Below are positions 877 through 24,639 of a stretch of 24,639 bases of DNA, in pieces. The DNA is from a virus. Lineage: Duplodnaviria > Caudoviricetes. Each line of letters starts with the position of its first letter. The stretch's first letter is position 1. The position numbers and the translations under genes were made by a program. Where the stretch lies: positions 1 through 24,639 of IMG/VR virus record IMGVR_UViG_3300022178_003533; one strand, given 5' to 3'. The notes beneath the pieces were generated by a model. That model saw only the letters and a program-made list of their open reading frames with translations, was not told the DNA's origin and searched no databases.

Positions 877-1077
877 ATGAAGAAAGATTTTTTACAAAGT
901 CTTATTGATGTTGGAAGTGGTTTTATATTAGCGATACTTATTCAAATAACGGTGTTTCCTTTATTTGGGTTACACCCTAGTTTTTCAGAGAACATAGGTA
1001 TAGCATTGATTTTTACAGTGGTATCGATTATAAGATCTTCTATATGGAGATGGATTTTTAGAAATGCAAAACTATAA
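877..1077 (+). CDS. Small two-TM phage membrane protein
   Basis: Two hydrophobic segments around QITVFPLFG and a basic C-terminus. The ATG directly follows the upstream stop, and the 3' end overlaps the terL start. Confidence 0.7.
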   Translation: MKKDFLQSLIDVGSGFILAILIQITVFPLFGLHPSFSENIGIALIFTVVSIIRSSIWRWIFRNAKL

Positions 1078-2530
1078 TGTTTCAGAGGACGTGCTCCGAG
1101 AAATTTTAGCTTTAGAAGAAGCAAAGAGAAAACTTGGAGTTAGAGAACAAACCGAAAAAAGTTTTATGAAGTTTGTTAAACATTGTTACGAAGGGTTTAT
1201 CGAAGGTTCTCATCATAAGAAAGTGGCAGAGAAATTTGAACAACTGGCCAAGAACCCTGGTTCACGGATCATTATCAATATGCCCCCTAGACATACGAAG
1301 TCTGAATTTGCAAGTTACTTATTACCTGCATGGTTAATTGGCAAGAAGCCAGATTTAAAAATTATTCAAACGACACACACCGCAGAGCTTGCGGTACGAT
1401 TTGGACGTAAGGTAAGAAACCTTATGGAGTTAGAGGTGTACAGAGAAGTATTTCCAGATGTAGAGTTACGTTCAGATTCAAAAGCAGCAGGTCGATGGGA
1501 AACAGGTCAAGGTGGTGAATATTATGCAGCGGGAGTTGGAGGAGCGATCACGGGTCGTGGTGCAGATTTATTGATTATTGATGATCCGCACTCGGAACAA
1601 GATGCACTTTCAGAAACGGCACTTGAAAATGCGTACGAGTGGTACACTTCTGGTCCAAGACAGAGATTACAACCAGGTGGATCTATAGTGATTGTTATGA
1701 CACGATGGTCATTAAAAGATTTGACTGGCAAACTGATAAAGGCGCAAGCCGCAGACCCCATGTCCGATAAATGGGACGTCATTGAATTTCCTGCTATCTT
1801 GCCGAGTGATAATATTTTGTGGCCAGAATTTTGGAAAAAAGATGAGTTGTTAAAGGTCAAGGCATCATTGTCTTTGAGCAAATGGAATGCGCAGTGGCAA
1901 CAAAATCCTGTGGCAGCAGAAGGAGCGATTATAAAAAAAGACTGGTGGAACGTATGGGAGAAAGAAGATATTCCTCCTGTTAGTTATATTATGCAAAGTT
2001 ATGATACGGCGTTTAGTAAAAAAGAGACGGCGGACTATAGTGCTATTACGACATGGGGTGTATTTAAACCAGATGAAGGTGGTTCAGATCATTTGATATT
2101 ATTAGATGCACAACGTGGACGATGGGATTTTCCTGAATTAAAAAGTAAAGCAAAAGAAGAGTATTCTTATTGGGAGCCTGATATGGTTTTAATTGAAGCA
2201 AAAGCTACAGGTACACCGCTCACGGACGAGTTGAGAAATATAGGAATACCTGTGGTAAATTATACACCTAGTAAAGGAAAAGATAAACATACCCGTATGC
2301 ATATGGTGGCACCGTTATTTGAGTCAGGTAAAGTGTGGGCTCCAATGAAAAGTTTTGCTGAGGAAGTGGTAGATGAAGTGGCGGCATTTCCAAATGGGGA
2401 CTATGATGATTACGTGGATAGTATGACCATGGCACTTATAAGATATCGTAAAGGGGGATTCATAATACTTGACAATGACGAGCAGGAAGAAGAAGGTATG
2501 ATAAGTATTAGTCCTCGTCAATTTTATTAG
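1064..2530 (+). CDS. terL: Terminase large subunit
   Basis: Walker A-like NMPPRHTKS, GVGGAITGRGAD, Walker B LLIIDDP, coupling motif VMTRW, RNase H-like nuclease residues SYDTAF..ADYSA and DDYVDS. Confidence 0.95.
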   Translation: MQNYNVSEDVLREILALEEAKRKLGVREQTEKSFMKFVKHCYEGFIEGSHHKKVAEKFEQLAKNPGSRIIINMPPRHTKSEFASYLLPAWLIGKKPDLKIIQTTHTAELAVRFGRKVRNLMELEVYREVFPDVELRSDSKAAGRWETGQGGEYYAAGVGGAITGRGADLLIIDDPHSEQDALSETALENAYEWYTSGPRQRLQPGGSIVIVMTRWSLKDLTGKLIKAQAADPMSDKWDVIEFPAILPSDNILWPEFWKKDELLKVKASLSLSKWNAQWQQNPVAAEGAIIKKDWWNVWEKEDIPPVSYIMQSYDTAFSKKETADYSAITTWGVFKPDEGGSDHLILLDAQRGRWDFPELKSKAKEEYSYWEPDMVLIEAKATGTPLTDELRNIGIPVVNYTPSKGKDKHTRMHMVAPLFESGKVWAPMKSFAEEVVDEVAAFPNGDYDDYVDSMTMALIRYRKGGFIILDNDEQEEEGMISISPRQFY

Positions 2531-3001: not shown

Positions 3002-5398
3002 ATGGCAGATAAAATAGACCCATCACAAATTGACAAATCAATGCCTGCAATGGGCGAAGAACTTATGGTCGAAGGAGAAGATCAAGAGATAGAAGAAGAT
3101 GAGGAAGAGTCAGAAGGTGACATTGAAGTCATTGAAGAAGAGGAAGATGGTTCTGTAGTTGTAAATTTTGAAGGAGCTATTCAAAAAGGAATGGCAGAAG
3201 AGCATGATGCTAATTTAGCAGAAATGGTAGATGTAAGAGTTTTACAAGATATATCCAGTGATTTAATATCTGATTATGAAGGAGATAAAGAATCCAGAAG
3301 CGATTGGGAAAATGCTTACTCCGAAGGATTAGAATTATTAGGTATTAAATATGAAGAAAGAGAAGAACCTTTTAGAGGTTCATCAGGAGTTACACATCCA
3401 TTAATATCAGAAGCTGTTACACAATTTCAAGCACAGGCTTATAAAGAATTGTTACCATCTGCTGGTCCTGTAAGAACACAAGTTTTAGGAGCGAACACTC
3501 CAGAAGTAGAAAATCAAGCACAACGTGTTCAAGACTTTATGAATTATCAGATTGTACATGTAATGGAAGAGTACGATCCTGAATTAGATAGACTGTTATT
3601 TTATCTACCCTTATCAGGTAGTGCTTTTAAAAAAGTATATTTTGATGAAACATTAGATAGAGCCGTATCTCGTTTTGTACCTGCGGACGATTTAGTTGTT
3701 CCATACAATGCTACTGATTTATATTCTGCTACAAGAGTAACACATGTATTGCGTGTTTCTGGAAATGAGATAAGGATTAATCAATCGACAGGGTTTTACA
3801 GAGATGTAGAATTACAACCTTATGAAGAAGAAGATCAAGTTAAAGATAAAGAAAGAGAATTATCAGGAGTAGAAAAAAATTCTACTGATGAAGATTATAC
3901 ATTATTAGAAGTACATACTAATTTAGATCTAGAAGGGTTTGAACATGTTAGTCCATTAGATGGAGAGACTACAGGTATTAAACTTCCTTACATTGTTATA
4001 CTAGATTTAGAAAGTGGTGAGGTATTATCTATTCGTAGAAATTGGAAAGAAGGAGATGAGTTCTATAAAAAACTTCAGTATTTTTCTCATTATAAATTTT
4101 TACCAGGTTTAGGTTTTTACGGTTTTGGACTACTACACATGATTGGTGGACTTGGAAGATCTGCTACTTCTATATTAAGACAATTAATTGATGCGGGTAC
4201 TTTAGCAAACTTACCTGCTGGATTTAAAGCAAGAGGCATACGAATAAGAGATTCCGATGAACCTCTATCACCAGGAGAGTTTAGAGATATAGATGTGCCC
4301 GGAGGCGATTTAAAAAATAGTATTTTACCATTACCTTATAAAGAGCCAAGTGGCACATTAATGCAACTTTTAGGATTTGTAGTAGATGCAGGTCGTAGGT
4401 TTGCTTCTATTGCAGATATGCAAACAGGTGAGAATAAACAAAATGCAGCAGTTGGAACTACTCTTGCTTTATTAGAGCGTGGATCAAGAGTGATGTCTGC
4501 TATTCACAAAAGAATGCACTATGCACAAAAACAAGAATTTAGGATGTTAGCAAAAGTATTTGGAGAGTCTTTACCTCCTGCATATCCATATAATGTTTTT
4601 GGCGCAGAAGCAATGATCAAACAAATGGATTTTGATGACAGAGTAGATGTAATACCTGTATCAGACCCTAACATTTTTTCTATGTCGCAAAGATTATCCC
4701 TAGCGCAAACTCAATTACAACTAGCGCAATCCAATCCTCAATTACATAATCTTTATGAAGCGTATAGAAGAATGTACCAGGCTGTTGGAGTGCAAAATAT
4801 TGAGGCGATACTACCACCGCCTCAGCCTCCTCAGCCTAGTGATCCTGCAATAGAAAACGCAAGAGCGATTGCAGCGCAAAATTTACAAGCATTTCAAGAA
4901 CAAGATCACGATGCACATATGGCATCTCACATAAGTTTTATGAAAACAGCTGTAGTTGCTAGTAGTCCTCAGATTTTTGCCTTGCTTTTAGCACATATTT
5001 GTGAGCATATTGCTTTTAAAGCAAGAGGTGTTGCAATGATGGAAGCTATGACAATGGCACAACAAGCACAACAGGCTGGACAACCCGAACCTATGGTTGA
5101 TGGTGAAGCAAAAGTTGCCCAGTACATATCTCAATATACTGAGGAAGTACTGGCTCTTTTTGCTCCCCCTGAACAAGGGCCAGACCCACTTGTTGCATTA
5201 AGAGAGAAAGAGTTAAACATTCAAGCGATGGACATGCAGAGAAAGTCAATGGAGTTTGATGCTAAATTAGGTTTTGAAGCAGAAAAAGAAGAAGGCAGAC
5301 AAGACCTTACAAAAGAAAGAATACAGTCTTCAGAAGATATAGCTCAACTAAGAGCGCAAGTTAATCGTGAACGTTTTGAAAATAAAGGAGGCTCGTAA
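3002..5398 (+). CDS. Portal protein
   Basis: 798 aa just downstream of terL. Acidic N-terminus, HPLISEAVTQFQAQAYKELLP, LPLSGSAFKKVY, PGLGFYGFG, LIDAGTLANLPAGFK and a coiled-coil C-terminus, as in podovirus portals. Confidence 0.88.
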   Translation: MADKIDPSQIDKSMPAMGEELMVEGEDQEIEEDEEESEGDIEVIEEEEDGSVVVNFEGAIQKGMAEEHDANLAEMVDVRVLQDISSDLISDYEGDKESRSDWENAYSEGLELLGIKYEEREEPFRGSSGVTHPLISEAVTQFQAQAYKELLPSAGPVRTQVLGANTPEVENQAQRVQDFMNYQIVHVMEEYDPELDRLLFYLPLSGSAFKKVYFDETLDRAVSRFVPADDLVVPYNATDLYSATRVTHVLRVSGNEIRINQSTGFYRDVELQPYEEEDQVKDKERELSGVEKNSTDEDYTLLEVHTNLDLEGFEHVSPLDGETTGIKLPYIVILDLESGEVLSIRRNWKEGDEFYKKLQYFSHYKFLPGLGFYGFGLLHMIGGLGRSATSILRQLIDAGTLANLPAGFKARGIRIRDSDEPLSPGEFRDIDVPGGDLKNSILPLPYKEPSGTLMQLLGFVVDAGRRFASIADMQTGENKQNAAVGTTLALLERGSRVMSAIHKRMHYAQKQEFRMLAKVFGESLPPAYPYNVFGAEAMIKQMDFDDRVDVIPVSDPNIFSMSQRLSLAQTQLQLAQSNPQLHNLYEAYRRMYQAVGVQNIEAILPPPQPPQPSDPAIENARAIAAQNLQAFQEQDHDAHMASHISFMKTAVVASSPQIFALLLAHICEHIAFKARGVAMMEAMTMAQQAQQAGQPEPMVDGEAKVAQYISQYTEEVLALFAPPEQGPDPLVALREKELNIQAMDMQRKSMEFDAKLGFEAEKEEGRQDLTKERIQSSEDIAQLRAQVNRERFENKGGS

Positions 5399-6402
5399 TG
5401 GGTAATAAAACAAAAAAACAAAAGTTTGATCAAGGGGGTTCTAAAAAAAGTGGGTTATTTCCAGCAGCTTTTGGAAGTGACCCGATAGCACAAATAGACG
5501 CTCTTATTAAAGAAGCAAGGAGACTTAAAAAAAATCAAGATAAAGGAAAAAAATATAAAAACCCAAAAGTAGATAAATATAATCAAGGAGGAAGTAACAT
5601 GGGCAAAAAGAAAATGAAAAACGGTGGTGGTATAAAAGAAGCAATATCAAATTTTTTTGGTAGTGGTACAAAGCCAGTGCTTGAACCTGGTAAAGGTGCT
5701 CGTCCAAAAGGTTCACCTGAACCAACTGTGTTTAAAAGTAAAAAAAATAAAAAACCTGATGCAAATAAAAAAACAGATAATCCTTTTAAAGCAAAAAATA
5801 AAAGTAATGCAAAAGTAGGACAAAAATTTGGATTTGAAAAAGTAAAAACAAAAAACTCTACTACAAAAAATAAAGTTTTTCCTAATACAAAAGGAAAAGA
5901 TTATACAATAAAGAAAAATGATACTTTATCAGGTATAGCTAAATCACAAGGAACAACTGTTGCTGCTATTATGGCAGCTAATAAAGGTATTAAAAACCCA
6001 AATAATATTAGAGCAGGAGCAGGTTTAGTTATTCCTGGAGGTGGTAAAACTAAAGTTAAGAGTAATACTAAAACTAATAAAACTAATAAAAAAAGCAATG
6101 TTCCAACAATCTTTAAGAAAAAAAATGATAACAAAAGTCCTTTAAGTAAATTTACTAAACCAGTAGTAGTAAAATCTAGAAAATTTGGTGATGAAAGTAA
6201 AATTACAAAAAATACTGATATGAGTAAAACCAAAGTTATTAGTACGCAAAATAAAAAGAAAAATAATAAGATAAAAAATATTACAGTCACACCTAAAAAG
6301 AAAAAAAATGAGATTAGTGACGATACTTTTATTACCAATAGAAAAAAAGGTGGAGTTAAAGTAAAAATGAATAGAGGGGGAACCTTTAAAGGTATTTTTT
6401 AA
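5398..6402 (+). CDS. Lys-rich protein with a single LysM domain
   Basis: LysM at about 5902-6036 (YTIKKNDTLSGIAKSQGTTVAAIMAANKGIKNPNNIRAGAGLVIP) within a K/N-rich disordered sequence. TAATG coupling to the portal gene and AGGAGG RBS. Confidence 0.85.
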   Translation: MGNKTKKQKFDQGGSKKSGLFPAAFGSDPIAQIDALIKEARRLKKNQDKGKKYKNPKVDKYNQGGSNMGKKKMKNGGGIKEAISNFFGSGTKPVLEPGKGARPKGSPEPTVFKSKKNKKPDANKKTDNPFKAKNKSNAKVGQKFGFEKVKTKNSTTKNKVFPNTKGKDYTIKKNDTLSGIAKSQGTTVAAIMAANKGIKNPNNIRAGAGLVIPGGGKTKVKSNTKTNKTNKKSNVPTIFKKKNDNKSPLSKFTKPVVVKSRKFGDESKITKNTDMSKTKVISTQNKKKNNKIKNITVTPKKKKNEISDDTFITNRKKGGVKVKMNRGGTFKGIF

Positions 6403-6653
6403 TGGCAGTAAGTTACAGAGGAGAAAAATTTTCTGGTTATAACAAACCAAAAAGAACTCCGGGCAAAAAGAAAAAATTTGCTGTACTTGCTAAAGTAGGT
6501 GACAAAGTAAGGCTAATAAGATATGGTGACCCAAATATGAAGATAAAAGTTAACATACCTAAGAGAAGAAAAAGCTTTAGAGCGAGACATAAATGTGATA
6601 CCGCTCCTCCTGCTAAATTAACTGCAAGATATTGGAGTTGTAAAAAATGGTAA
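6402..6653 (+). CDS. Small basic conserved phage protein
   Basis: TAATG coupling. The pattern KKKFAV..IRYGDPNM..RRKSFRARHKC..ARYWSCKKW is recognisable from marine phage hypotheticals. Confidence 0.8.
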   Translation: MAVSYRGEKFSGYNKPKRTPGKKKKFAVLAKVGDKVRLIRYGDPNMKIKVNIPKRRKSFRARHKCDTAPPAKLTARYWSCKKW

Positions 6654-7045
6654 GAAAAGGTGGTATTAGATCTCAAATGTCTAAACAAATGGGTATGTCA
6701 AAAAGCAAAGCAGACGACCTTTTACAAAAAGGCAAACAAATGAACGATGCACAAGGTTTTAATAAAGGAGGAACTAGCATGGCTAAACAATTTCCAGACT
6801 TAACAGGAGACGGTCAAACAACCCAAGCAGATATTCTCAAAGGAAGAGGAGTTTTTGCTCATGGTGGTACTATGACTGTTATAATTGGAACAGATGTTTC
6901 ACGTGAAACATCTAATTATGTTGAAAAAATAACACCTGGTCCAAAAGATGTAAAAGTAAACATGAATAGTAAAGTGAGAAACCAAGAAATTAAAGGTACT
7001 CCATCTGTTCAAGTAAAAGGAAGAAGATTTTCTGGAGTTTATTAA
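6647..7045 (+). CDS. Hypothetical basic protein with EF-hand/dockerin-like loop; contains a parS site
   Basis: Overlaps the upstream gene and is coupled to the downstream one (TAATG). DLTGDGQTTQAD loop. Possible internal start at 6779. Confidence 0.75.
   Translation: MVRKGGIRSQMSKQMGMSKSKADDLLQKGKQMNDAQGFNKGGTSMAKQFPDLTGDGQTTQADILKGRGVFAHGGTMTVIIGTDVSRETSNYVEKITPGPKDVKVNMNSKVRNQEIKGTPSVQVKGRRFSGVY
6895..6910. promoter_or_regulatory. parS: parS-consensus ParB binding site
   Basis: Exact TGTTTCACGTGAAACA, the widely conserved chromosomal parS consensus. It lies inside the perfect 22-bp palindrome AGATGTTTCACGTGAAACATCT (6892-6913). Confidence 0.8.
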
Positions 7046-7242
7046 TGAGTTCTATAAATTTTGCTTATTCTTTTTTAAAAAGAATACAACAAAGAATAGA
7101 ATTAACAAAAGAAACTATTTTATCAGGTTCTTTTAAAACGATGGAAGATTACAAACACATAACTGGAGAGCTAAAAGGTCTTCAGTTTGCAGAAAGAGAA
7201 ATAAAGGAACAATTAGAAAGCAAGGAGAATGACGATGAGTAA
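7045..7242 (+). CDS. Small helical hypothetical protein preceding groES
   Basis: Coupled start (TAATG), amphipathic helices, SG..MEDYKHITGELKGL pattern, acidic tail. Confidence 0.8.
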   Translation: MSSINFAYSFLKRIQQRIELTKETILSGSFKTMEDYKHITGELKGLQFAEREIKEQLESKENDDE

Positions 7243-7705
7243 AACACTATATGTGCCAGAACATATTGCGAATAAAGATAAGAAAGAAAAAAAGGTTAAT
7301 GTAGAACCTTTATACAGACCAAAGGATACTAAAGTTCTTGATCCTGGTTTAATTAAGAAAAATTTAAAAGAAAGACTTCCTCAACCTACAGGTTGGAGAA
7401 TATTGGTAATGCCTTATATGGGTAAAGCCACTACAGACTCAGGTATTTACATTCCTGATACTGTCAGAGAGCGTGAGCAACTAGCAACAGTAGTAGCTTA
7501 TGTTTTAAGAGTTGGACCTTTAGCGTATAAAGATCCAAATAAGTTTGGGCCAGAATCTACTTCTTGGTGTCAAGAAGGTCAATGGGTTTGTATTGGTCGT
7601 TACGCAGGATCTCGTTTTAAAATAGACGGCGGTGAAGTTAGAATTATTAATGATGACGAAGTAATTGCTACTATATTAGAACCAGATGATATTAAACACG
7701 TTTAA
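7235..7705 (+). CDS. groES: GroES/Cpn10-like co-chaperonin
   Basis: PQPTGWRILV, TDSGIYIPD mobile-loop region, VLRVGPLAY, GQWVCIGRYAG, RIINDDEVIA. Start placed at 7235 because AAGGAG (7222-7227) is 7 nt from it but only 1 nt from 7229. Confidence 0.88.
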   Translation: MSKTLYVPEHIANKDKKEKKVNVEPLYRPKDTKVLDPGLIKKNLKERLPQPTGWRILVMPYMGKATTDSGIYIPDTVREREQLATVVAYVLRVGPLAYKDPNKFGPESTSWCQEGQWVCIGRYAGSRFKIDGGEVRIINDDEVIATILEPDDIKHV

Positions 7706-7743
7706 ACAGAAAGAATAAAGCAACTTCATGGAGATAAAGAGAC

Positions 7744-8634
7744 ATGCAACAAGAACAAAAATTAGAACAAGAAAATATTGAACAAGAAACGGTAGAAGTT
7801 GAATTAGAAGATAAAAAAAACGATACCGAAACACAAGAGCCTGAAGAAAAAGTAGAAACAAAAAGTAAAGATGAGTTAGAAGACTACAGTTCAGGTGTTA
7901 AAAATAGAATTGATAAACTTACTAGAAAAATGCGTGAAGAAGAGCGTCAAAAAGAAAGCGCTATTCAATTTGCCGAGAATGTTAAAAAAGAAAATGAAAC
8001 TTTAAAGACTAGATTAACTAATCTTGATAAAGGATATCAAGAAGAATTTGGTTCAAGAGTCGATTCTCAGTTACAAGCGGCAAAAAGATCTTTAAAAGAT
8101 GCACATGACTCAGGAGATACAGATAAAATAGTAGAAGCTCAAGAAAGTTTAGCTACTTTAACTGTTGAAAAGTCAAAATTAAAGAAACCAATTGTTAAAG
8201 AAGAGGCAGAAACACCGAATCAAGCACCAGTTTCTCCAATTCCTGCCCAACAACCTCAACAACCTGCTCAAAATGCACGTCCAGATCCAAAAGCAGAGGC
8301 TTGGGCTAACAAAAACGACTGGTTTGGGCAAGATGAAGTTATGACATATGCATCATTTGGCATTCATAGACGTTTAGTTGAGGATGAAGGGTTTGACCCC
8401 ACATCAGATGAGTACTATAGTGAACTCGATAAACGAATAGCTTCTGAGTTCCCTCATAAAGTAGGACAGAAGCAAACGGGAGGAAGTCAAAAGGTAGTTT
8501 CGGCTACTTCTTCTAAATCCCGCAACAAAGGGGGTAAAAAAACAGTGAGACTATCCGCCTCTCAAGTTGCAATGGCAAAACGATTAGGTGTTCCCGTAGA
8601 GGAATACGCAAAATATGTTAGACAGGAGGCTTAA
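7744..8634 (+). CDS. Putative capsid scaffolding protein
   Basis: Acidic coiled-coil N-terminus (YSSGVKNRIDKLT), P/Q linker, C-terminal LSASQVAMAKRLGVPVEEYAKY. Located upstream of the capsid gene. Confidence 0.7.
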   Translation: MQQEQKLEQENIEQETVEVELEDKKNDTETQEPEEKVETKSKDELEDYSSGVKNRIDKLTRKMREEERQKESAIQFAENVKKENETLKTRLTNLDKGYQEEFGSRVDSQLQAAKRSLKDAHDSGDTDKIVEAQESLATLTVEKSKLKKPIVKEEAETPNQAPVSPIPAQQPQQPAQNARPDPKAEAWANKNDWFGQDEVMTYASFGIHRRLVEDEGFDPTSDEYYSELDKRIASEFPHKVGQKQTGGSQKVVSATSSKSRNKGGKKTVRLSASQVAMAKRLGVPVEEYAKYVRQEA

Positions 8635-9799: not shown

Positions 9800-10708
9800 A
9801 TGGCGATATCTAGAGCCCAATTAGCTAAAGAGCTAGAACCTGGTCTTAATGCCTTATTTGGCCTTGAGTACCAAAGATACGAACAAGAGCACACTGAAAT
9901 ATTTGACAAAGAAAATTCTGAGAGAGCTTTCGAAGAAGAAGTAATGTTAAGTGGTTTTGGTTCTGCTCCTGTAAAAAGTGAAGGTGCAGCAGTTGCATTT
10001 GACGATGCAAATGAAGCTTATACTGCAAGGTATAACCATGAAACTATTGCTTTAGCTTTTTCAATAACTGAAGAAGCAATTGAAGATAATCTATATGATA
10101 GATTAGCTACAAGATACACTAAAGCATTAGCTAGAAGCATGGCTAATACTAAACAGGTTAAAGCAGCATCTGTTTTAAACAACGCATTTGACGCTACAAT
10201 AACAGGTGGTGACGGTGTTTCTTTATGTAATGGCTCACACCCATTAACAAACGGTAGCACTTTTAGAAACCAACCTACTACTGCAGCTGATTTAAATGAA
10301 ACAAGCTTAGAAAATGCCTTAATTGACATTTCTGGTTTTGTTGATGAGCGTGGTTTAAGAGTTTCTGTTCGTGGTTTAAAACTAATAATTCCATCAAATC
10401 TACAATTTATAGCTGATAGAATATTAGAGTCCACATTAAGACCAGGGACTGCTGACAATGACGTTAACGCAATGAAGAACATGGGAATGCTTCCTGAAGG
10501 TTATACTGTCAACCACTATTTATTAGACACTGATGCATTTTTTATTAAGACAGATGCACCAAGAGGTTTCGTTCAGTTTGAAAGAATGCCTATGTCTACT
10601 AAGATGGAAGGTGACTTTGACACAGGAAATATGAGATTTAAAGCAAGAGAGAGATACTCTTTTGGTTTCTCAGACCCAAGATGTGTTTACGGCTCACAAG
10701 GAGCTTAA
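9800..10708 (+). CDS. Major capsid protein (HK97 fold)
   Basis: RBS AAGGAG. MAISRAQLAKELEPGLNALFGLEY, HETIALAFSITEEAIEDNLY, GDFDTGNMRFKARERYSFG. Size and position fit. Confidence 0.9.
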   Translation: MAISRAQLAKELEPGLNALFGLEYQRYEQEHTEIFDKENSERAFEEEVMLSGFGSAPVKSEGAAVAFDDANEAYTARYNHETIALAFSITEEAIEDNLYDRLATRYTKALARSMANTKQVKAASVLNNAFDATITGGDGVSLCNGSHPLTNGSTFRNQPTTAADLNETSLENALIDISGFVDERGLRVSVRGLKLIIPSNLQFIADRILESTLRPGTADNDVNAMKNMGMLPEGYTVNHYLLDTDAFFIKTDAPRGFVQFERMPMSTKMEGDFDTGNMRFKARERYSFGFSDPRCVYGSQGA

Positions 10709-15877: not shown

Positions 15878-17071
15878 ATGGCATCATCGTTTACAACAAG
15901 TTTTGGAATAGAAAAAATAACAACAGGTGAGCAGTCAGGCTCCTGGGGCACAACAACAAATTACAATATAGATATTCTAGATAGAATAGCTTCTTACAAA
16001 TCAGTAGCATTATCTGATGCATCTACAGCAACATTAACAGTTAGAGCAGGATCTCCAACTGATGGAGGAAATAATGTTCAAGATGGAATGTATAGAATAA
16101 TAAAGTTTACAGGAACTTTAAGTCAAAACTGTACAATAACTATAGCTCCTGCCACTACTACTTCTTATTTTGTTTTTCAAAATGCTACAAGTGGTGGATA
16201 CAGTATTATTATGAAACAAGGATCTGGAGCAGCTACAGTCACTATACCAACTACTAAATCAAACATGGTTTATTGTGATGGTAGTGATGAAGTTATATCT
16301 GTTTCTGCTTTATTTGAGTTTGGTTCTATGAGTTCATTTACATTAGCTGGTACTTCTGGAGCCAATCAAACAATATCTGATAGTAATACATTAACCATTG
16401 CTGCAGGAGAAGGTATTACAACAACTGGTGGCAGTACAGATACAGTAACAGTGGCAGGAGAAGATGCTACTACTTCTAATAAAGGCATAGCTTCTTTTAC
16501 TAGTTCAGATTTTAGTGTATCAAGTGGAGCAGTATCTTTAGCTAGTACAATTAAAAAAGCTGGTAAAGAAACTATATGGGTTCCAGCAGTTGCTATGTAT
16601 CCTAATACAACAAATGGTGCAGAAGCAGCTCAAGTAGAATTAAGTAATGGACCAGAGATAAAGGTCTTAGACTTTGATGCTAGTTCAGATGAAAATGCGC
16701 AATTTGCAGTAGCTTTTCCTAAATCATGGAATGAAGGCACTGTTACTTTTCAAGCATTTTTTACAGTTACAGGAACAAATACAGGTACAGTAGCTTGGGG
16801 TTTATCTGGTGTAGCAATTTCAGATAATGACTCTTGCAACACAGCATTTGGAACTAACGTAGTTGCAACTGCTAAAGCACATAGTGGAACATCAAATGAT
16901 TTAGATGTTGCCGCAGAAAGTGGAGCTGTAACTATAGCTGGTTCACCAGCAGCAAATGATCAAGTATTCTTTCAAGTAATGAGAGATGTTTCTGCTGATG
17001 ACCAATCAGGAGACGCTAGATTATTAGGAATTAAATTATTCTTTACAACTGATGCAGCAAATGACGCATAA
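15878..17071 (+). CDS. Putative tail fibre protein
   Basis: RBS AGGAG. N-terminal anchor-like TGEQSGSWGTTTN, S/T/G-rich shaft, distinct C-terminal beta-sandwich domain from about GKETIWVPA. Confidence 0.65.
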   Translation: MASSFTTSFGIEKITTGEQSGSWGTTTNYNIDILDRIASYKSVALSDASTATLTVRAGSPTDGGNNVQDGMYRIIKFTGTLSQNCTITIAPATTTSYFVFQNATSGGYSIIMKQGSGAATVTIPTTKSNMVYCDGSDEVISVSALFEFGSMSSFTLAGTSGANQTISDSNTLTIAAGEGITTTGGSTDTVTVAGEDATTSNKGIASFTSSDFSVSSGAVSLASTIKKAGKETIWVPAVAMYPNTTNGAEAAQVELSNGPEIKVLDFDASSDENAQFAVAFPKSWNEGTVTFQAFFTVTGTNTGTVAWGLSGVAISDNDSCNTAFGTNVVATAKAHSGTSNDLDVAAESGAVTIAGSPAANDQVFFQVMRDVSADDQSGDARLLGIKLFFTTDAANDA

Positions 17072-20947: not shown

Positions 20948-21268
20948 ATGGCAAATTCTTTTAAAAATGTAGCAATAATACCTAGTAGTACATCAGATAC
21001 CACAATATATACGTGTCCTACAGCAACACAAGCTATTGTAAAAAATGTAAATTTGTATAATAATCATAGTGGTAATGTAGATGTTATTGTAAGTATAAGA
21101 GATAGCTCTGCATCTACAACAGCCATCATAGATAAAACTACGATGTCTGCCGCTGGAGAAACGTCCCTCACTGCTCCGTTTGTTTTGGAAGAAAGTGATA
21201 CGCTCATATTAAATTGTGCAACAGCAGATGTTATTAACACATTTGTAAGTATTTTGGAGGTATCATAA
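20948..21268 (+). CDS. Small beta-rich virion protein
   Basis: MANSFKN..TIYTCP..AIVKN..VLEESDTL..VSILEVS. Coupled to the next gene. Confidence 0.75.
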   Translation: MANSFKNVAIIPSSTSDTTIYTCPTATQAIVKNVNLYNNHSGNVDVIVSIRDSSASTTAIIDKTTMSAAGETSLTAPFVLEESDTLILNCATADVINTFVSILEVS

Positions 21269-22737
21269 TGGATCAACAAGTAGCTAAGTATTCAGGAGAA
21301 CCTACCGTAGAGTCTCTTGCTTCTGGTTTAGCAACCTTAGGAAGATATGGAGATACTTACATGGTACACGCCGCTGAAGGTGAAACTGTTATACCAGCAG
21401 AAATACTTGAAGCTAATCCAGAATTAAAAAGTCAATTATTTAGTCAAATGAAAATGATGGGTATTAAAGACCCAGATAGATATGTTGTTGGTAATGGGTT
21501 AAACTCTATAAATCCTATTACAGGACAACCAGAATTTTTCTTTAAAAAAGCATTTAGATCTATTAAAAAAGTATTTAAAAAAGTAGCACCAGTTATTGTA
21601 CCAATAGTTGGTAATATGATTGCTCCGGGCATAGGTGGTCCGATAGCTTCTGCCTTAATGACTAAGATGCAAGGTGGTTCAATGTCCGATGCTTTTAGAA
21701 GCGCGGCTATGGCGTATGCAGGTCAAGCTGTAGCAGGGGGAGCATCAAAAGCTTTTTCACAAGGCTCATCAATGGGGTACGGTAAATCATTTTTAGAAGG
21801 TTTAAAAAGCGGTGCATTACAACCTATTGAAGCAGCAGGTAATTTATTTAGTGGTGGACCATCAAACCCATTAGCGCAAGGTATTTTTGGCCCAAGAGGT
21901 GCAAACTTGCTATTTAGAGAAAGCGCAAAAGAGCTAGGTAAAAATAAATTTGCAAGTATTGGCTCTGCATTGTTTCCTGCTTATCAAGGTTCCTCTGCTA
22001 ATTATGGAGTTAACACCGCAAACCAATCATATGGAGGTAAACCTGACCCTAGAGCTCAAGGTAATTATACTGAAACAGGTACAGGAAGTACGGTACAACA
22101 AGCTCCAGGAAGTTCGGCAGACATAGCGCAAGCAAACGCAAATCAAAAAGTATTAGATAATATTGGTTATACAGGAGATCCTAGTTTAACTAATGTTGGA
22201 CCAGCAGGATCAACAGGAGGAGCCGAAAGTGGTATTTTCTCAAGTGGCATAGGAAAAGTTGCTAAAGATGTAGCGACAAGTAATTTAGGAATAGCAGGTT
22301 TAACTGCCGCAGGTGTGTATTTGTTAACACCTGACGAAGAACTACCTGAAGAAGATTTAGGAAAACTAAGTGATCCTCAAAGAACAGCATACGATAAATA
22401 TTTAGGAATGAGTGATAAAAGCAGTCCAGAAGCGTTATCTTTAAGAAGACAAGCAGGTATCTTTTCTCCTTATCAAGATAGACCTCAAGATTTAGCTAAT
22501 ATATCAGGTATATCTTTAGATGAAGCTAAAAATTATTTATCTAAATTTGCAGGTGGTGGAGAAGTTATTGGACCAGGAACAGGCACCTCTGATGATATAA
22601 ACGCTAAACTATCTGATGGTGAATTTGTTATGACTGCTCAAGCAGTACGAAACGCAGGTGGTGGAAACAGAGATTTAGGAGCAGCAAGAATGTATGATTT
22701 AATGACAAGATTTGAAGGAGGCCCTGCGTATGGCTGA
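21268..22737 (+). CDS. Putative internal virion / DNA ejection protein
   Basis: RBS GGAGGT. GRYGDT..H..EGETVIP, INPITGQPEFF, G/A-rich hydrophobic helices, C-terminal GPGTGTSDDINAKLSDGEFV motif also seen in tape-measure C-termini. Confidence 0.65.
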   Translation: MDQQVAKYSGEPTVESLASGLATLGRYGDTYMVHAAEGETVIPAEILEANPELKSQLFSQMKMMGIKDPDRYVVGNGLNSINPITGQPEFFFKKAFRSIKKVFKKVAPVIVPIVGNMIAPGIGGPIASALMTKMQGGSMSDAFRSAAMAYAGQAVAGGASKAFSQGSSMGYGKSFLEGLKSGALQPIEAAGNLFSGGPSNPLAQGIFGPRGANLLFRESAKELGKNKFASIGSALFPAYQGSSANYGVNTANQSYGGKPDPRAQGNYTETGTGSTVQQAPGSSADIAQANANQKVLDNIGYTGDPSLTNVGPAGSTGGAESGIFSSGIGKVAKDVATSNLGIAGLTAAGVYLLTPDEELPEEDLGKLSDPQRTAYDKYLGMSDKSSPEALSLRRQAGIFSPYQDRPQDLANISGISLDEAKNYLSKFAGGGEVIGPGTGTSDDINAKLSDGEFVMTAQAVRNAGGGNRDLGAARMYDLMTRFEGGPAYG

Positions 22738-23749
22738 AGTAACTAAATCAGAGAGTATAGTAAGACAAGCCCCCTTTCTTGAGGATTATCAAAGAAAATT
22801 ATTAGACCAAGCAATGGCTAGAGGGGAAACAGCAATCGATGTTCCCGATATACAAGTAGCAGGTCAAGATCCTTTAACTGCCCAAGCTATACAAACTGGT
22901 TCAGGTATTGGTTCTTTTATGCCTTATTTTAATCAAGGCGCAGGAACAATTAATGAAGGATTAGCAACATTAAAATCTCAAGCAACAGGTGTTCCAGGAT
23001 TATTACAAGAAGCAGCAGCTACTGCAAGAGGAGCAGATCAATTACCAACACAAGAAAATATACAACCCTTAATGGACCCGTATCAAAATCTTGTTACACA
23101 AAATGCTACCGCTGAATTAGCTAGACAAGCGGATATAGAAAGAAATAAACTACTTGCTCAACAATCAGGTATAGGTGCTCTTGGTGGAGATAGAGGACAA
23201 TTGCAGTTAGCAGAGTTACAAAGAAACTTAACTGATATGCAAAGCAGACGTATTTATGAAGATATGTCTAAGAACTTTCAACAAGCACAAAATGCATTTC
23301 AGAACCAACAAGCAAGACAACAAAATGTTAGCCAATTGTTAACAGGTATTGGACAGACTACAGGTCAAGAAGCACAAAGACTTGGTCAAGGTATTGGTGC
23401 ATTTGGTGAAGCACAAAAATCATTAGCAGGCACAGGTCAAACATTAACACAACAACAAACACAGTTGTTATCTGGCCTTGGTAATTTAAATCAACAACAA
23501 GCACAAATGGAATTAGATGCAGCTAGACAGTCTGAGTTACAACAGGCTTATGAACCATATCAAAGAATTGGTTTTACAAGTGATATCTTTAAACCTCAAA
23601 TAGGTTCTGCTTCTTCTACTTTAGGATCAACTGTTGCTCCGTCACCTAGTCCATTATCACAGGCTATTGGTGCAGGAACCGTGGCCCTTGGTGCCTTAAA
23701 AACTTTTGGTAATCCGTTTGATTCTATATTTAAATCGAGTGCAGAATGA
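22730..23749 (+). CDS. Putative internal virion / DNA ejection protein (Gln-rich coiled coil)
   Basis: Start revised to ATG 22730, with AAGGAGG at 22715-22721. Q/A/G-rich, MDPYQ and LGGDRG motifs, hydrophobic C-terminal helix. Confidence 0.65.
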   Translation: MAEVTKSESIVRQAPFLEDYQRKLLDQAMARGETAIDVPDIQVAGQDPLTAQAIQTGSGIGSFMPYFNQGAGTINEGLATLKSQATGVPGLLQEAAATARGADQLPTQENIQPLMDPYQNLVTQNATAELARQADIERNKLLAQQSGIGALGGDRGQLQLAELQRNLTDMQSRRIYEDMSKNFQQAQNAFQNQQARQQNVSQLLTGIGQTTGQEAQRLGQGIGAFGEAQKSLAGTGQTLTQQQTQLLSGLGNLNQQQAQMELDAARQSELQQAYEPYQRIGFTSDIFKPQIGSASSTLGSTVAPSPSPLSQAIGAGTVALGALKTFGNPFDSIFKSSAE

Positions 23750-24639
23750 GAAAACCAGTACGTTCAGTAGTAGCAAATAGAAAATATTTCCAAGGTGGAG
23801 GTCTTACTAAAAACACTAACCCTATGGCTGTAAGTCAACCATCAGGTATTATGGCTTCTTCGCAACCACTAGTGGATATGGTAGCAAATAGTGCAAATAA
23901 CCCACAAGGTGGTATGTCTCCTTTGAATTATGCAGATGGTGGTTTAGCTAAGTTTGAACCAGGTGGTATGTTTGCAGACAGACCTAGAGTTCAAGGTCTT
24001 ATGAATACTTTAGGAAATGTAACACAGTTAATGCAACCTTCTAGACTTTTAGCAAAAATTAGTGAAAAAATTCCAGCAACAGGTATTGGACAATATATAA
24101 CTGCTAAAAAAGGAGATCCTATTTTAGATGAAAAGGTTGGAGCTATAGATGCTATTAAAATGTATGATTTAATTGATGTTATTGGAGATAGAACAGGTCA
24201 AAGAGAATTAGTAGATAGGATAGGTAAATCTATTATTGCTCAAAATCCACAAATAACTCCTAAAGATTTAGAAACTGAAATTATGCAAAAACTAGAAACT
24301 CCTTCTGAACAATTAGAAGGAGAATTATTATTACAAGAAACTCAACAAAGTAAAAATAAACTTCAACCTTTTTTAAGAGAAGGAAGTGGTAAAATAGAAA
24401 AACCAGATGGAAAAATAACCAAAGTAGATGATTTTTCAGAAGGTGATGGAATTAAACAATTAAAAAAAGAAGAAAAATTAGAATCAGATAAAATACCAGA
24501 AGAAGATTTAAAAAAGATTGAAGAAAAAAGTGGTGCATTAGCTCAAGGATTAGAAAAAAAAGAAATAACTAGACCTACAGAAAAAATAGTTAAAGACATA
24601 GTTGATCAAAATGAAGAAGTAAAAGAAGAAGCAGAAGTA
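23746..24639 (+). CDS. Putative internal virion protein, 3'-truncated by the window (not in ORF track)
   Basis: ATGA overlap with the upstream stop. Open for 298 codons to the window end (MRKPVRSVVANRKYFQGGG...YADGGLAKFEPGG...), E/K-rich. Confidence 0.8.
   Translation, partial: MRKPVRSVVANRKYFQGGGLTKNTNPMAVSQPSGIMASSQPLVDMVANSANNPQGGMSPLNYADGGLAKFEPGGMFADRPRVQGLMNTLGNVTQLMQPSRLLAKISEKIPATGIGQYITAKKGDPILDEKVGAIDAIKMYDLIDVIGDRTGQRELVDRIGKSIIAQNPQITPKDLETEIMQKLETPSEQLEGELLLQETQQSKNKLQPFLREGSGKIEKPDGKITKVDDFSEGDGIKQLKKEEKLESDKIPEEDLKKIEEKSGALAQGLEKKEITRPTEKIVKDIVDQNEEVKEEAEV

Follow-up and report, generated by a model that had tools for sequence, protein, structure and literature searches.

Why should a tailed phage carry, among its late genes, the centromere of a bacterial chromosome, and which protein would read it there? 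The question arises from a DNA stretch of 24,639 nucleotides (the window), in which a sequence-only reading had noticed a perfect copy of the chromosomal partition site parS and proposed that the phage may borrow the ParABS/SMC system of its host in cis. We asked what kind of phage this is, how strongly the word is conserved and in what form, whether partition genes accompany it, and which bacteria carry the same word.

The window, a partial genome that makes up the whole of its assembly, is a fragment of an HTVC023P-type phage, as judged by its capsid protein and gene order. All of its genes lie on the plus strand: terL comes first, followed by the portal gene, a series of short ORFs, and groES, and then by a probable scaffold gene and the genes for capsid and tail.

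1064..2530, plus strand: terminase large subunit (terL), from a protein family search; query for collecting relatives.
3002..5398, plus strand: portal gene (phrog_1216), the left landmark.
5398..7242, plus strand: variable array of short ORFs from portal to groES, the interval in which the clade retains the site (ORFs, relatives).
6647..7045, plus strand: basic ORF of 132 amino acids hosting the site in the window's subclade (ORF list), with no family in Pfam or PHROGs.
7229..7705, plus strand: phage groES (phrog_3188), the right landmark.
9800..10708, plus strand: major capsid protein, 70% identical to that of HTVC023P (protein comparison).

The capsid protein shares 72% identity with that of DSL-LC04 and 69.6% with that of pelagiphage HTVC023P, and TerL is 56.8% identical to its HTVC023P counterpart. 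The terL, portal, groES, scaffold, and capsid genes match HTVC023P in both homology and order. Clades of HTVC023P-type phages are defined by the phylogeny of DNA polymerase A (PMC9599517), whose gene falls outside the window and is present in the complete relatives. A preprint reports the group as the most abundant known among marine phages and describes it as purely lytic and integrase-free (bioRxiv 2019.12.14.876532).

In the array (5398-7242), the small basic ORFs have a repeated (F/Y/M)xxGG motif and often an aromatic last residue (GIF and GVY in the window, GTF and RVF in relatives). Late ejection-type ORFs (21268-22737 and 23746-24639) contain FxGGG as well, and the motif may serve as a signal for processing or targeting. 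Directly 3' of the portal gene lies a lysine-rich ORF of 334 amino acids (5398-6402), in which residues 169-213 form a LysM domain.

The site itself consists of two nested elements, neither assigned to a strand.

6892..6913: perfect palindrome of 22 bp, its outer bases not conserved (palindrome search, relatives).
6895..6910: consensus parS core, the conserved element (word search, relatives, consensus in PMC7383237).

The palindrome, AGATGTTTCACGTGAAACATCT, is the longest in the window, the runners-up being 12 bp in length. Its 16-bp core, TGTTTCACGTGAAACA, is an inverted repeat (TGTTTCAC-GTGAAACA) identical to the consensus chromosomal parS as written in PMC7383237, and positions 6893-6912 are identical to the 20-mer that was crystallized with Caulobacter ParB in the same work. 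The palindrome translates as D-V-S-R-E-T-S within ORF 6647-7045, and the window has no further copy of the core at up to two mismatches. This 16-mer is expected 8e-6 times in the window from base composition and 1.3e-6 times from an order-3 Markov model; the earlier rough figure was about 1e-5. Perfect palindromes of any sequence are expected 0.011 times per window at a length of at least 22 bp and 0.6 times at a length of at least 16 bp, and because of the latter figure it is the match to a specific word, not palindromy alone, that constitutes the signal. The sequence-only reading is thus borne out on the palindrome, its consensus core, its reading frame, and its single copy, as well as on the lack of parA and parB in the window, where 29 ORFs gave no match to a ParA or ParB family (PHROGs). 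The 22-bp length needs correction: conservation is confined to the 16-bp core, and among relatives the symmetric extension ranges from 0 to 3 bp.

Close relatives of ORF 6647-7045 were gathered with peptide seeds lacking VSRET, which yielded 16 loci at 60-100% identity. The exact 16-mer is present in 15 of these, and the sixteenth ends before the site. A stretch of 18 bp is invariant across 12 aligned sequences; the codon preceding the site varies among D, N, and Y, while its last base, which is the first base of the site, is fixed. Invariance at synonymous positions had been suggested as a check, and the codons of the site are indeed constant. This is weak evidence, however, since among sequences this close the codons are identical at 47 of the 72 invariant residues. 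In L149-L154, an unrelated segment takes the place of an EF-hand-like stretch of ORF 6647-7045, DLTGDGQTTQAD, with the adjoining parS unchanged.

Conservation across more distant relatives was examined in a pool of 202 sequences (the window, two cultured-phage stretches, and 199 loci), 84 of which span the whole portal-groES interval. Dereplication on groES left 72 rows, from which a quick IQ-TREE tree was built with SH-aLRT support only. Within the portal-groES interval, the site occurs at no more than one mismatch in 28 of the 32 rows of one clade (SH-aLRT 95) and in none of the 40 rows outside it; the four remaining rows of the clade have nothing at up to three mismatches in the partial DNA available. 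Relatives might have lacked the site, and the clade retains it. The clade consists of two subclades. In the window's subclade (GC 33-38%), all seven rows have the site in frame, as VSRET. In the sister subclade (GC 40-52%), 21 of 25 rows have it, and here it is intergenic, beginning 0-1 nt 3' of a stop codon in all 21. The gene 5' of the intergenic site differs among at least four genes (the portal gene itself or at least three others), and the 3' gene differs too. All 13 orthologues of ORF 6647 in the sister subclade lack VSRET while the site stays, which rules out protein constraint on this peptide.

Matches at no more than one mismatch number 46 in 1.49 Mb of redundant relative loci, as compared with a mean of 0.02 and a maximum of 2 for 144 control palindromes of the same composition made from shuffled halves; this set replaced an earlier control word that scored 33 because it lies within two mismatches of parS itself. 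Among 29 distinct flanked sites, variants are one or two bases off consensus, and neither a compensatory pair nor a conserved extension occurs. The element is real and strongly conserved, and it is conserved as DNA independent of reading frame. Clade-wide retention, intergenic copies in the sister subclade, orthologues without VSRET, and the lack of compensatory pairs and of a conserved extension argue, from comparison of these genomes, that it is selected as this DNA word and not as protein.

The site also occurs beyond this clade. Among 139 sampled IMG/VR loci with an exact match, 13 had a tblastn match to a window protein in their short flanks, nine of them at 45% identity or more. In distant lineages of the family, the site is found 37-143 bp upstream of terL (seven loci), within the scaffold linker, ahead of the portal gene, or between portal and groES, and in one locus (L293) it lies just 3' of the capsid gene. 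These varied positions suggest repeated gain or movement of the site. Another locus, L220, has three exact sites (3237, 8109, and 10989), one ahead of a holin-like gene, one within the array, and one in the linker of the scaffold gene.

Eight of ten named genomes searched have no site at up to two mismatches. Sequences lacking it at this threshold include HTVC023P, DSL-LC04, 023Pt_psg01, MinM2, CRP-901, CRP-902, RW, and the contig G242. None of five contigs collected by groES has the site, among them G242, which is 98% complete and falls outside the clade. Because HTVC023P, DSL-LC04, G242, and others do without it, the site is dispensable for the family; HTVC023P infects SAR11, yet lacks it. 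HTVC027P (MN698241.1, L205) has a one-mismatch parS. From the GenBank table this site appeared to be intergenic, an interpretation that was dropped because it lies inside an unannotated ORF of 123 amino acids (about 16216-16587) whose homologues do not keep the peptide, and as support from a cultured phage it is ambiguous. The 123-amino acid ORF is conserved across the family and is presumably resolvase-like, judging by a motif. QDWS535 has a palindrome with two mismatches.

In IMG/VR as a whole, the exact word is estimated to occur in about 5,700 stretches, as compared with 39 for one control palindrome of the same composition, an estimate extrapolated from 2 of 64 parts without dereplication and possibly including host or plasmid DNA. 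A 30-base query matched 437 phage records at E values up to 10, with relatives of phi29 among the best matches and the full word not necessarily in all. The query also matches phages of Listeria, Clostridium, Microbacterium, Arthrobacter, and Gordonia as well as Microviridae, some at many places; parS on single-stranded DNA phages would be odd.

P1 ParABS, N15 SopABC, and the parABS systems of mycobacteriophages each supply their own ParA and ParB along with a private parS, so that phage DNA is partitioned by a ParB-type clamp. A self-encoded cassette of the P1/N15 type, with parA and parB next to parS, was not found among the window ORFs or in the relatives searched. Each of five long contigs of the clade, three of which are 96% complete or more, has a single site. 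No ParB_N match was found in any of the five, in a search whose control matched in 10 of 14 named genomes, and no ParA match was found in the four long clade contigs searched or in HTVC027P, in a search run without a positive control. A Pfam scan of 104 of the 151 ORF calls of two of the long contigs, which covered nearly all of one (G003) and mainly the non-structural part of the other (G001), identified DNA polymerase A, primase, helicases, and an XRE-family helix-turn-helix (HTH) protein, and no integrase or partition family. The suggestion to look for phage ParA or ParB elsewhere in the genome can therefore be answered from complete relatives, the window's own genome being partial: none was found, and the window's phage is likely to be without partition genes.

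Contig labels do not identify the host, as the MAG and SAG labels of relatives are scattered over many phyla, and assignment from them was set aside. The GC content of the sister subclade does not fit SAR11, and hosts are left open for some clades in published descriptions of the group (PMC9599517; bioRxiv 2019.12.14.876532). Two marine alphaproteobacterial families were examined as candidate hosts. In the first (G006), 20 of 23 genomes have the site at no more than one mismatch, in most cases as two copies separated by about 1.9 kb; in all three regions examined, one copy is at the start of mnmG and the other at the start of rsmG. The second (G135) has genomes of 0.9-1.6 Mb, a GC content of 27-30% in the regions examined, and SAR11_0636 RNA in 29 of 31 genomes (seven over the cut-off); from these three properties we infer that it is SAR11-like. 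The site is present at no more than one mismatch in 41 of its 61 genomes, occurring once in 38 of these, and in all four regions examined it lies in the 5' part of rsmG within the order mnmE-mnmG-rsmG-parA-parB. Four of the 20 site-negative genomes of this family were checked, and all have parB and sites with two or three mismatches in rsmG. In such small SAR11-like genomes (L337-L340), parS is present only in degenerate form, located in rsmG at other positions and occurring twice in three of the four checked; this possibly reflects a shifted ParB specificity.

At the equivalents of R173 and G201, the four ParB proteins examined have arginine and glycine, and lysine is absent from both 179 and 184 (positions counted from the motif); by these residues they are classed as ParB-type and not Noc-type. 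Candidate-host parS is likewise found in coding DNA, being read as MFHVKH at the start of mnmG and as VSRET in rsmG, and the in-gene position of the phage site is therefore ordinary. The phage and host operons share only the word of 16-20 bp, which rules out capture of a host mnmG or rsmG fragment.

How might the phage use this word? ParB engages ParA and SMC. Binding of ParB to this DNA and its spreading with CTP are established for Caulobacter (PMC7383237; PMC8367383). Because the phage has one exact parS and its complete relatives have no partition genes, borrowing of host ParB is likely, and host ParB is quite probably the reader of the site. With moderate confidence, we propose that the site is a cis-only dock: on one exact host-type parS, in a phage likely to be devoid of partition genes, host ParB would load and thereby couple phage DNA to positioning by ParA and SMC. 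After entry and during replication, each phage copy would load clamps of host ParB, and the loaded DNA would be positioned on the nucleoid in the manner of an origin region. The copies would then disperse, and each daughter would receive some should a slow-growing host divide before lysis, an outcome that would be a non-sporulating analogue of spore entrapment by phi29. The idea of borrowing in cis put forward in the sequence-only reading thus gains support from the conservation of the DNA, from complete relatives devoid of Par proteins, and from the same word beside parAB in candidate hosts. That positioning or segregation is the main benefit is about an even call on these comparisons.

The same reader might serve a different purpose. 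Amplified phage genomes could titrate host ParB and stall segregation and division, so that the cell keeps making phage. Candidate hosts have one or two sites per chromosome, so that a few phage copies would outnumber them, and parS mimics of SGI1 displace the IncC plasmid in a replication-dependent manner (PMC10954446). A pure ParB sink would nevertheless favor many copies, whereas every long clade contig has a single site, and three are seen in L220 alone. We consider titration a plausible minority explanation.

It is unlikely that host ParB at the site acts as a copy-number-sensitive roadblock, damping the groES, scaffold, and capsid genes until ParB is diluted by replication. Within the clade, the site keeps its place 5' of groES, and the next ATG lies 2 nt past the site in 13 of the 21 site-bearing sister rows, both of which would suit such control. 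However, the site is in the middle of a gene in the window's subclade, and other lineages have it 5' of terL, inside the scaffold gene, or 3' of the capsid gene. The number of promoter-like sites in 5300-7800 (11) does not clearly exceed that in shuffled sequence (mean 7.3, sd 2.8).

Operators of XRE-family proteins are short palindromes, and the palindrome might be the operator of the clade's own XRE-family HTH protein, with the match to parS due to convergence or to origin only. The gene for this protein was located in two relatives.

L420:3200-3487 and L425:5131-5382: XRE-family HTH gene, downstream of the SNF2 helicase.

It is present in all five of the long site-bearing clade contigs and in none of six genomes outside the clade, although this co-occurrence is confounded with clade descent. 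Several observations make an operator quite improbable. There is a single site, separated from the XRE gene by about 20 kb, and similar words at up to four mismatches are few (seven in G003 and four in G001, the exact site included; control mean 2.9, sd about 2). No HTH_3 was found in two further site-bearing contigs, G247 and G248, both incomplete, and the site equals host parS letter for letter.

An RNA hairpin governing processing or translation, or a DNA cruciform, is very unlikely. The region does fold at -12.9 kcal/mol (z -2.65), and common variants keep or wobble the stem, but the flanked sites described above lack any compensatory change, and the extension of the stem is not conserved. 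Chance, constraint on VSRET, or an assembly artefact is hardly credible and already largely refuted: palindromes of 16 bp have an expectation of 0.6 per window whatever their sequence, but the specific word one of about 1e-5, and this word persists in independent assemblies, at intergenic positions, and alongside an orthologue that lacks VSRET.

A dock for host ParB has precedents, which the sequence-only reading did not name. The Bacillus phages phi29 and Nf have parS sites read by host Spo0J (PMC2731898, citing Meijer 2005). As in those phages, which are described as virulent (PMC2731898), a host-type parS is present in cis and reliance on host ParB is probable. However, phi29 has five sites, 0A boxes, and spore entrapment, as compared with one site and a presumably non-sporulating host here, and the marine HTVC023P-type phages are unrelated to it, with complete relatives of 56-58 kb that encode DNA polymerase A. 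Since the phage is unrelated, has one site, and presumably infects a non-sporulating host, the benefit must differ from that in phi29; Spo0A boxes and entrapment in spores would hardly be relevant to such a host. The parS-like elements of SGI1 hijack the ParABS system of an IncC plasmid (PMC10954446). Similarly, the phage site is a cis-only parS that probably borrows the ParB of another replicon, and its copy number rises with replication; SGI1, in contrast, is an integrative element that mimics a plasmid parS and adds the protein Sci, whereas the phage has a chromosomal word on a lytic-looking genome. The chromosomal ParABS systems of Caulobacter and Bacillus have the identical 16-bp consensus (PMC7383237), but here it is on a phage and lacks an adjoining parAB. 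The phage cassettes of P1, N15, and mycobacteriophages differ in that no ParA or ParB was found in the clade contigs searched here. In the literature covered, outside which lie subscription journals and bioRxiv supplements, we found no report of a host-type parS in marine or HTVC023P-type phages, and the pelagiphage literature searched does not mention parS. Host parS on a virulent phage (phi29 and Nf) and cis-only mimicry (SGI1) are known; what is new is the single site, the presumably non-sporulating host, and the very abundant phage group.

A broader possibility, which we put forward tentatively, is that a clade of the most abundant ocean phage group, and other lineages of the family separately, possess a centromere that acts only in cis and connects the DNA of a lytic phage to the ParABS/SMC cycle of the host. 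The phage might thereby ride through division in starved cells having one or two parS and then seize the segregation machinery upon amplification, amounting to an integrase-free and gene-free carrier state that may be widespread in phages of non-sporulating bacteria. The preprint on the HTVC023P-type group describes it as lytic and shows no carrier state (bioRxiv 2019.12.14.876532). What the clade retains is a conserved host centromere of 16 bp, an element invisible to gene annotation. It would provide a handle, through one site, on the persistence of lytic phages in slow-growing marine bacteria or on their takeover of the cell cycle. The collection-wide estimate suggests that the trick of phi29 is far more general than searchable papers describe.
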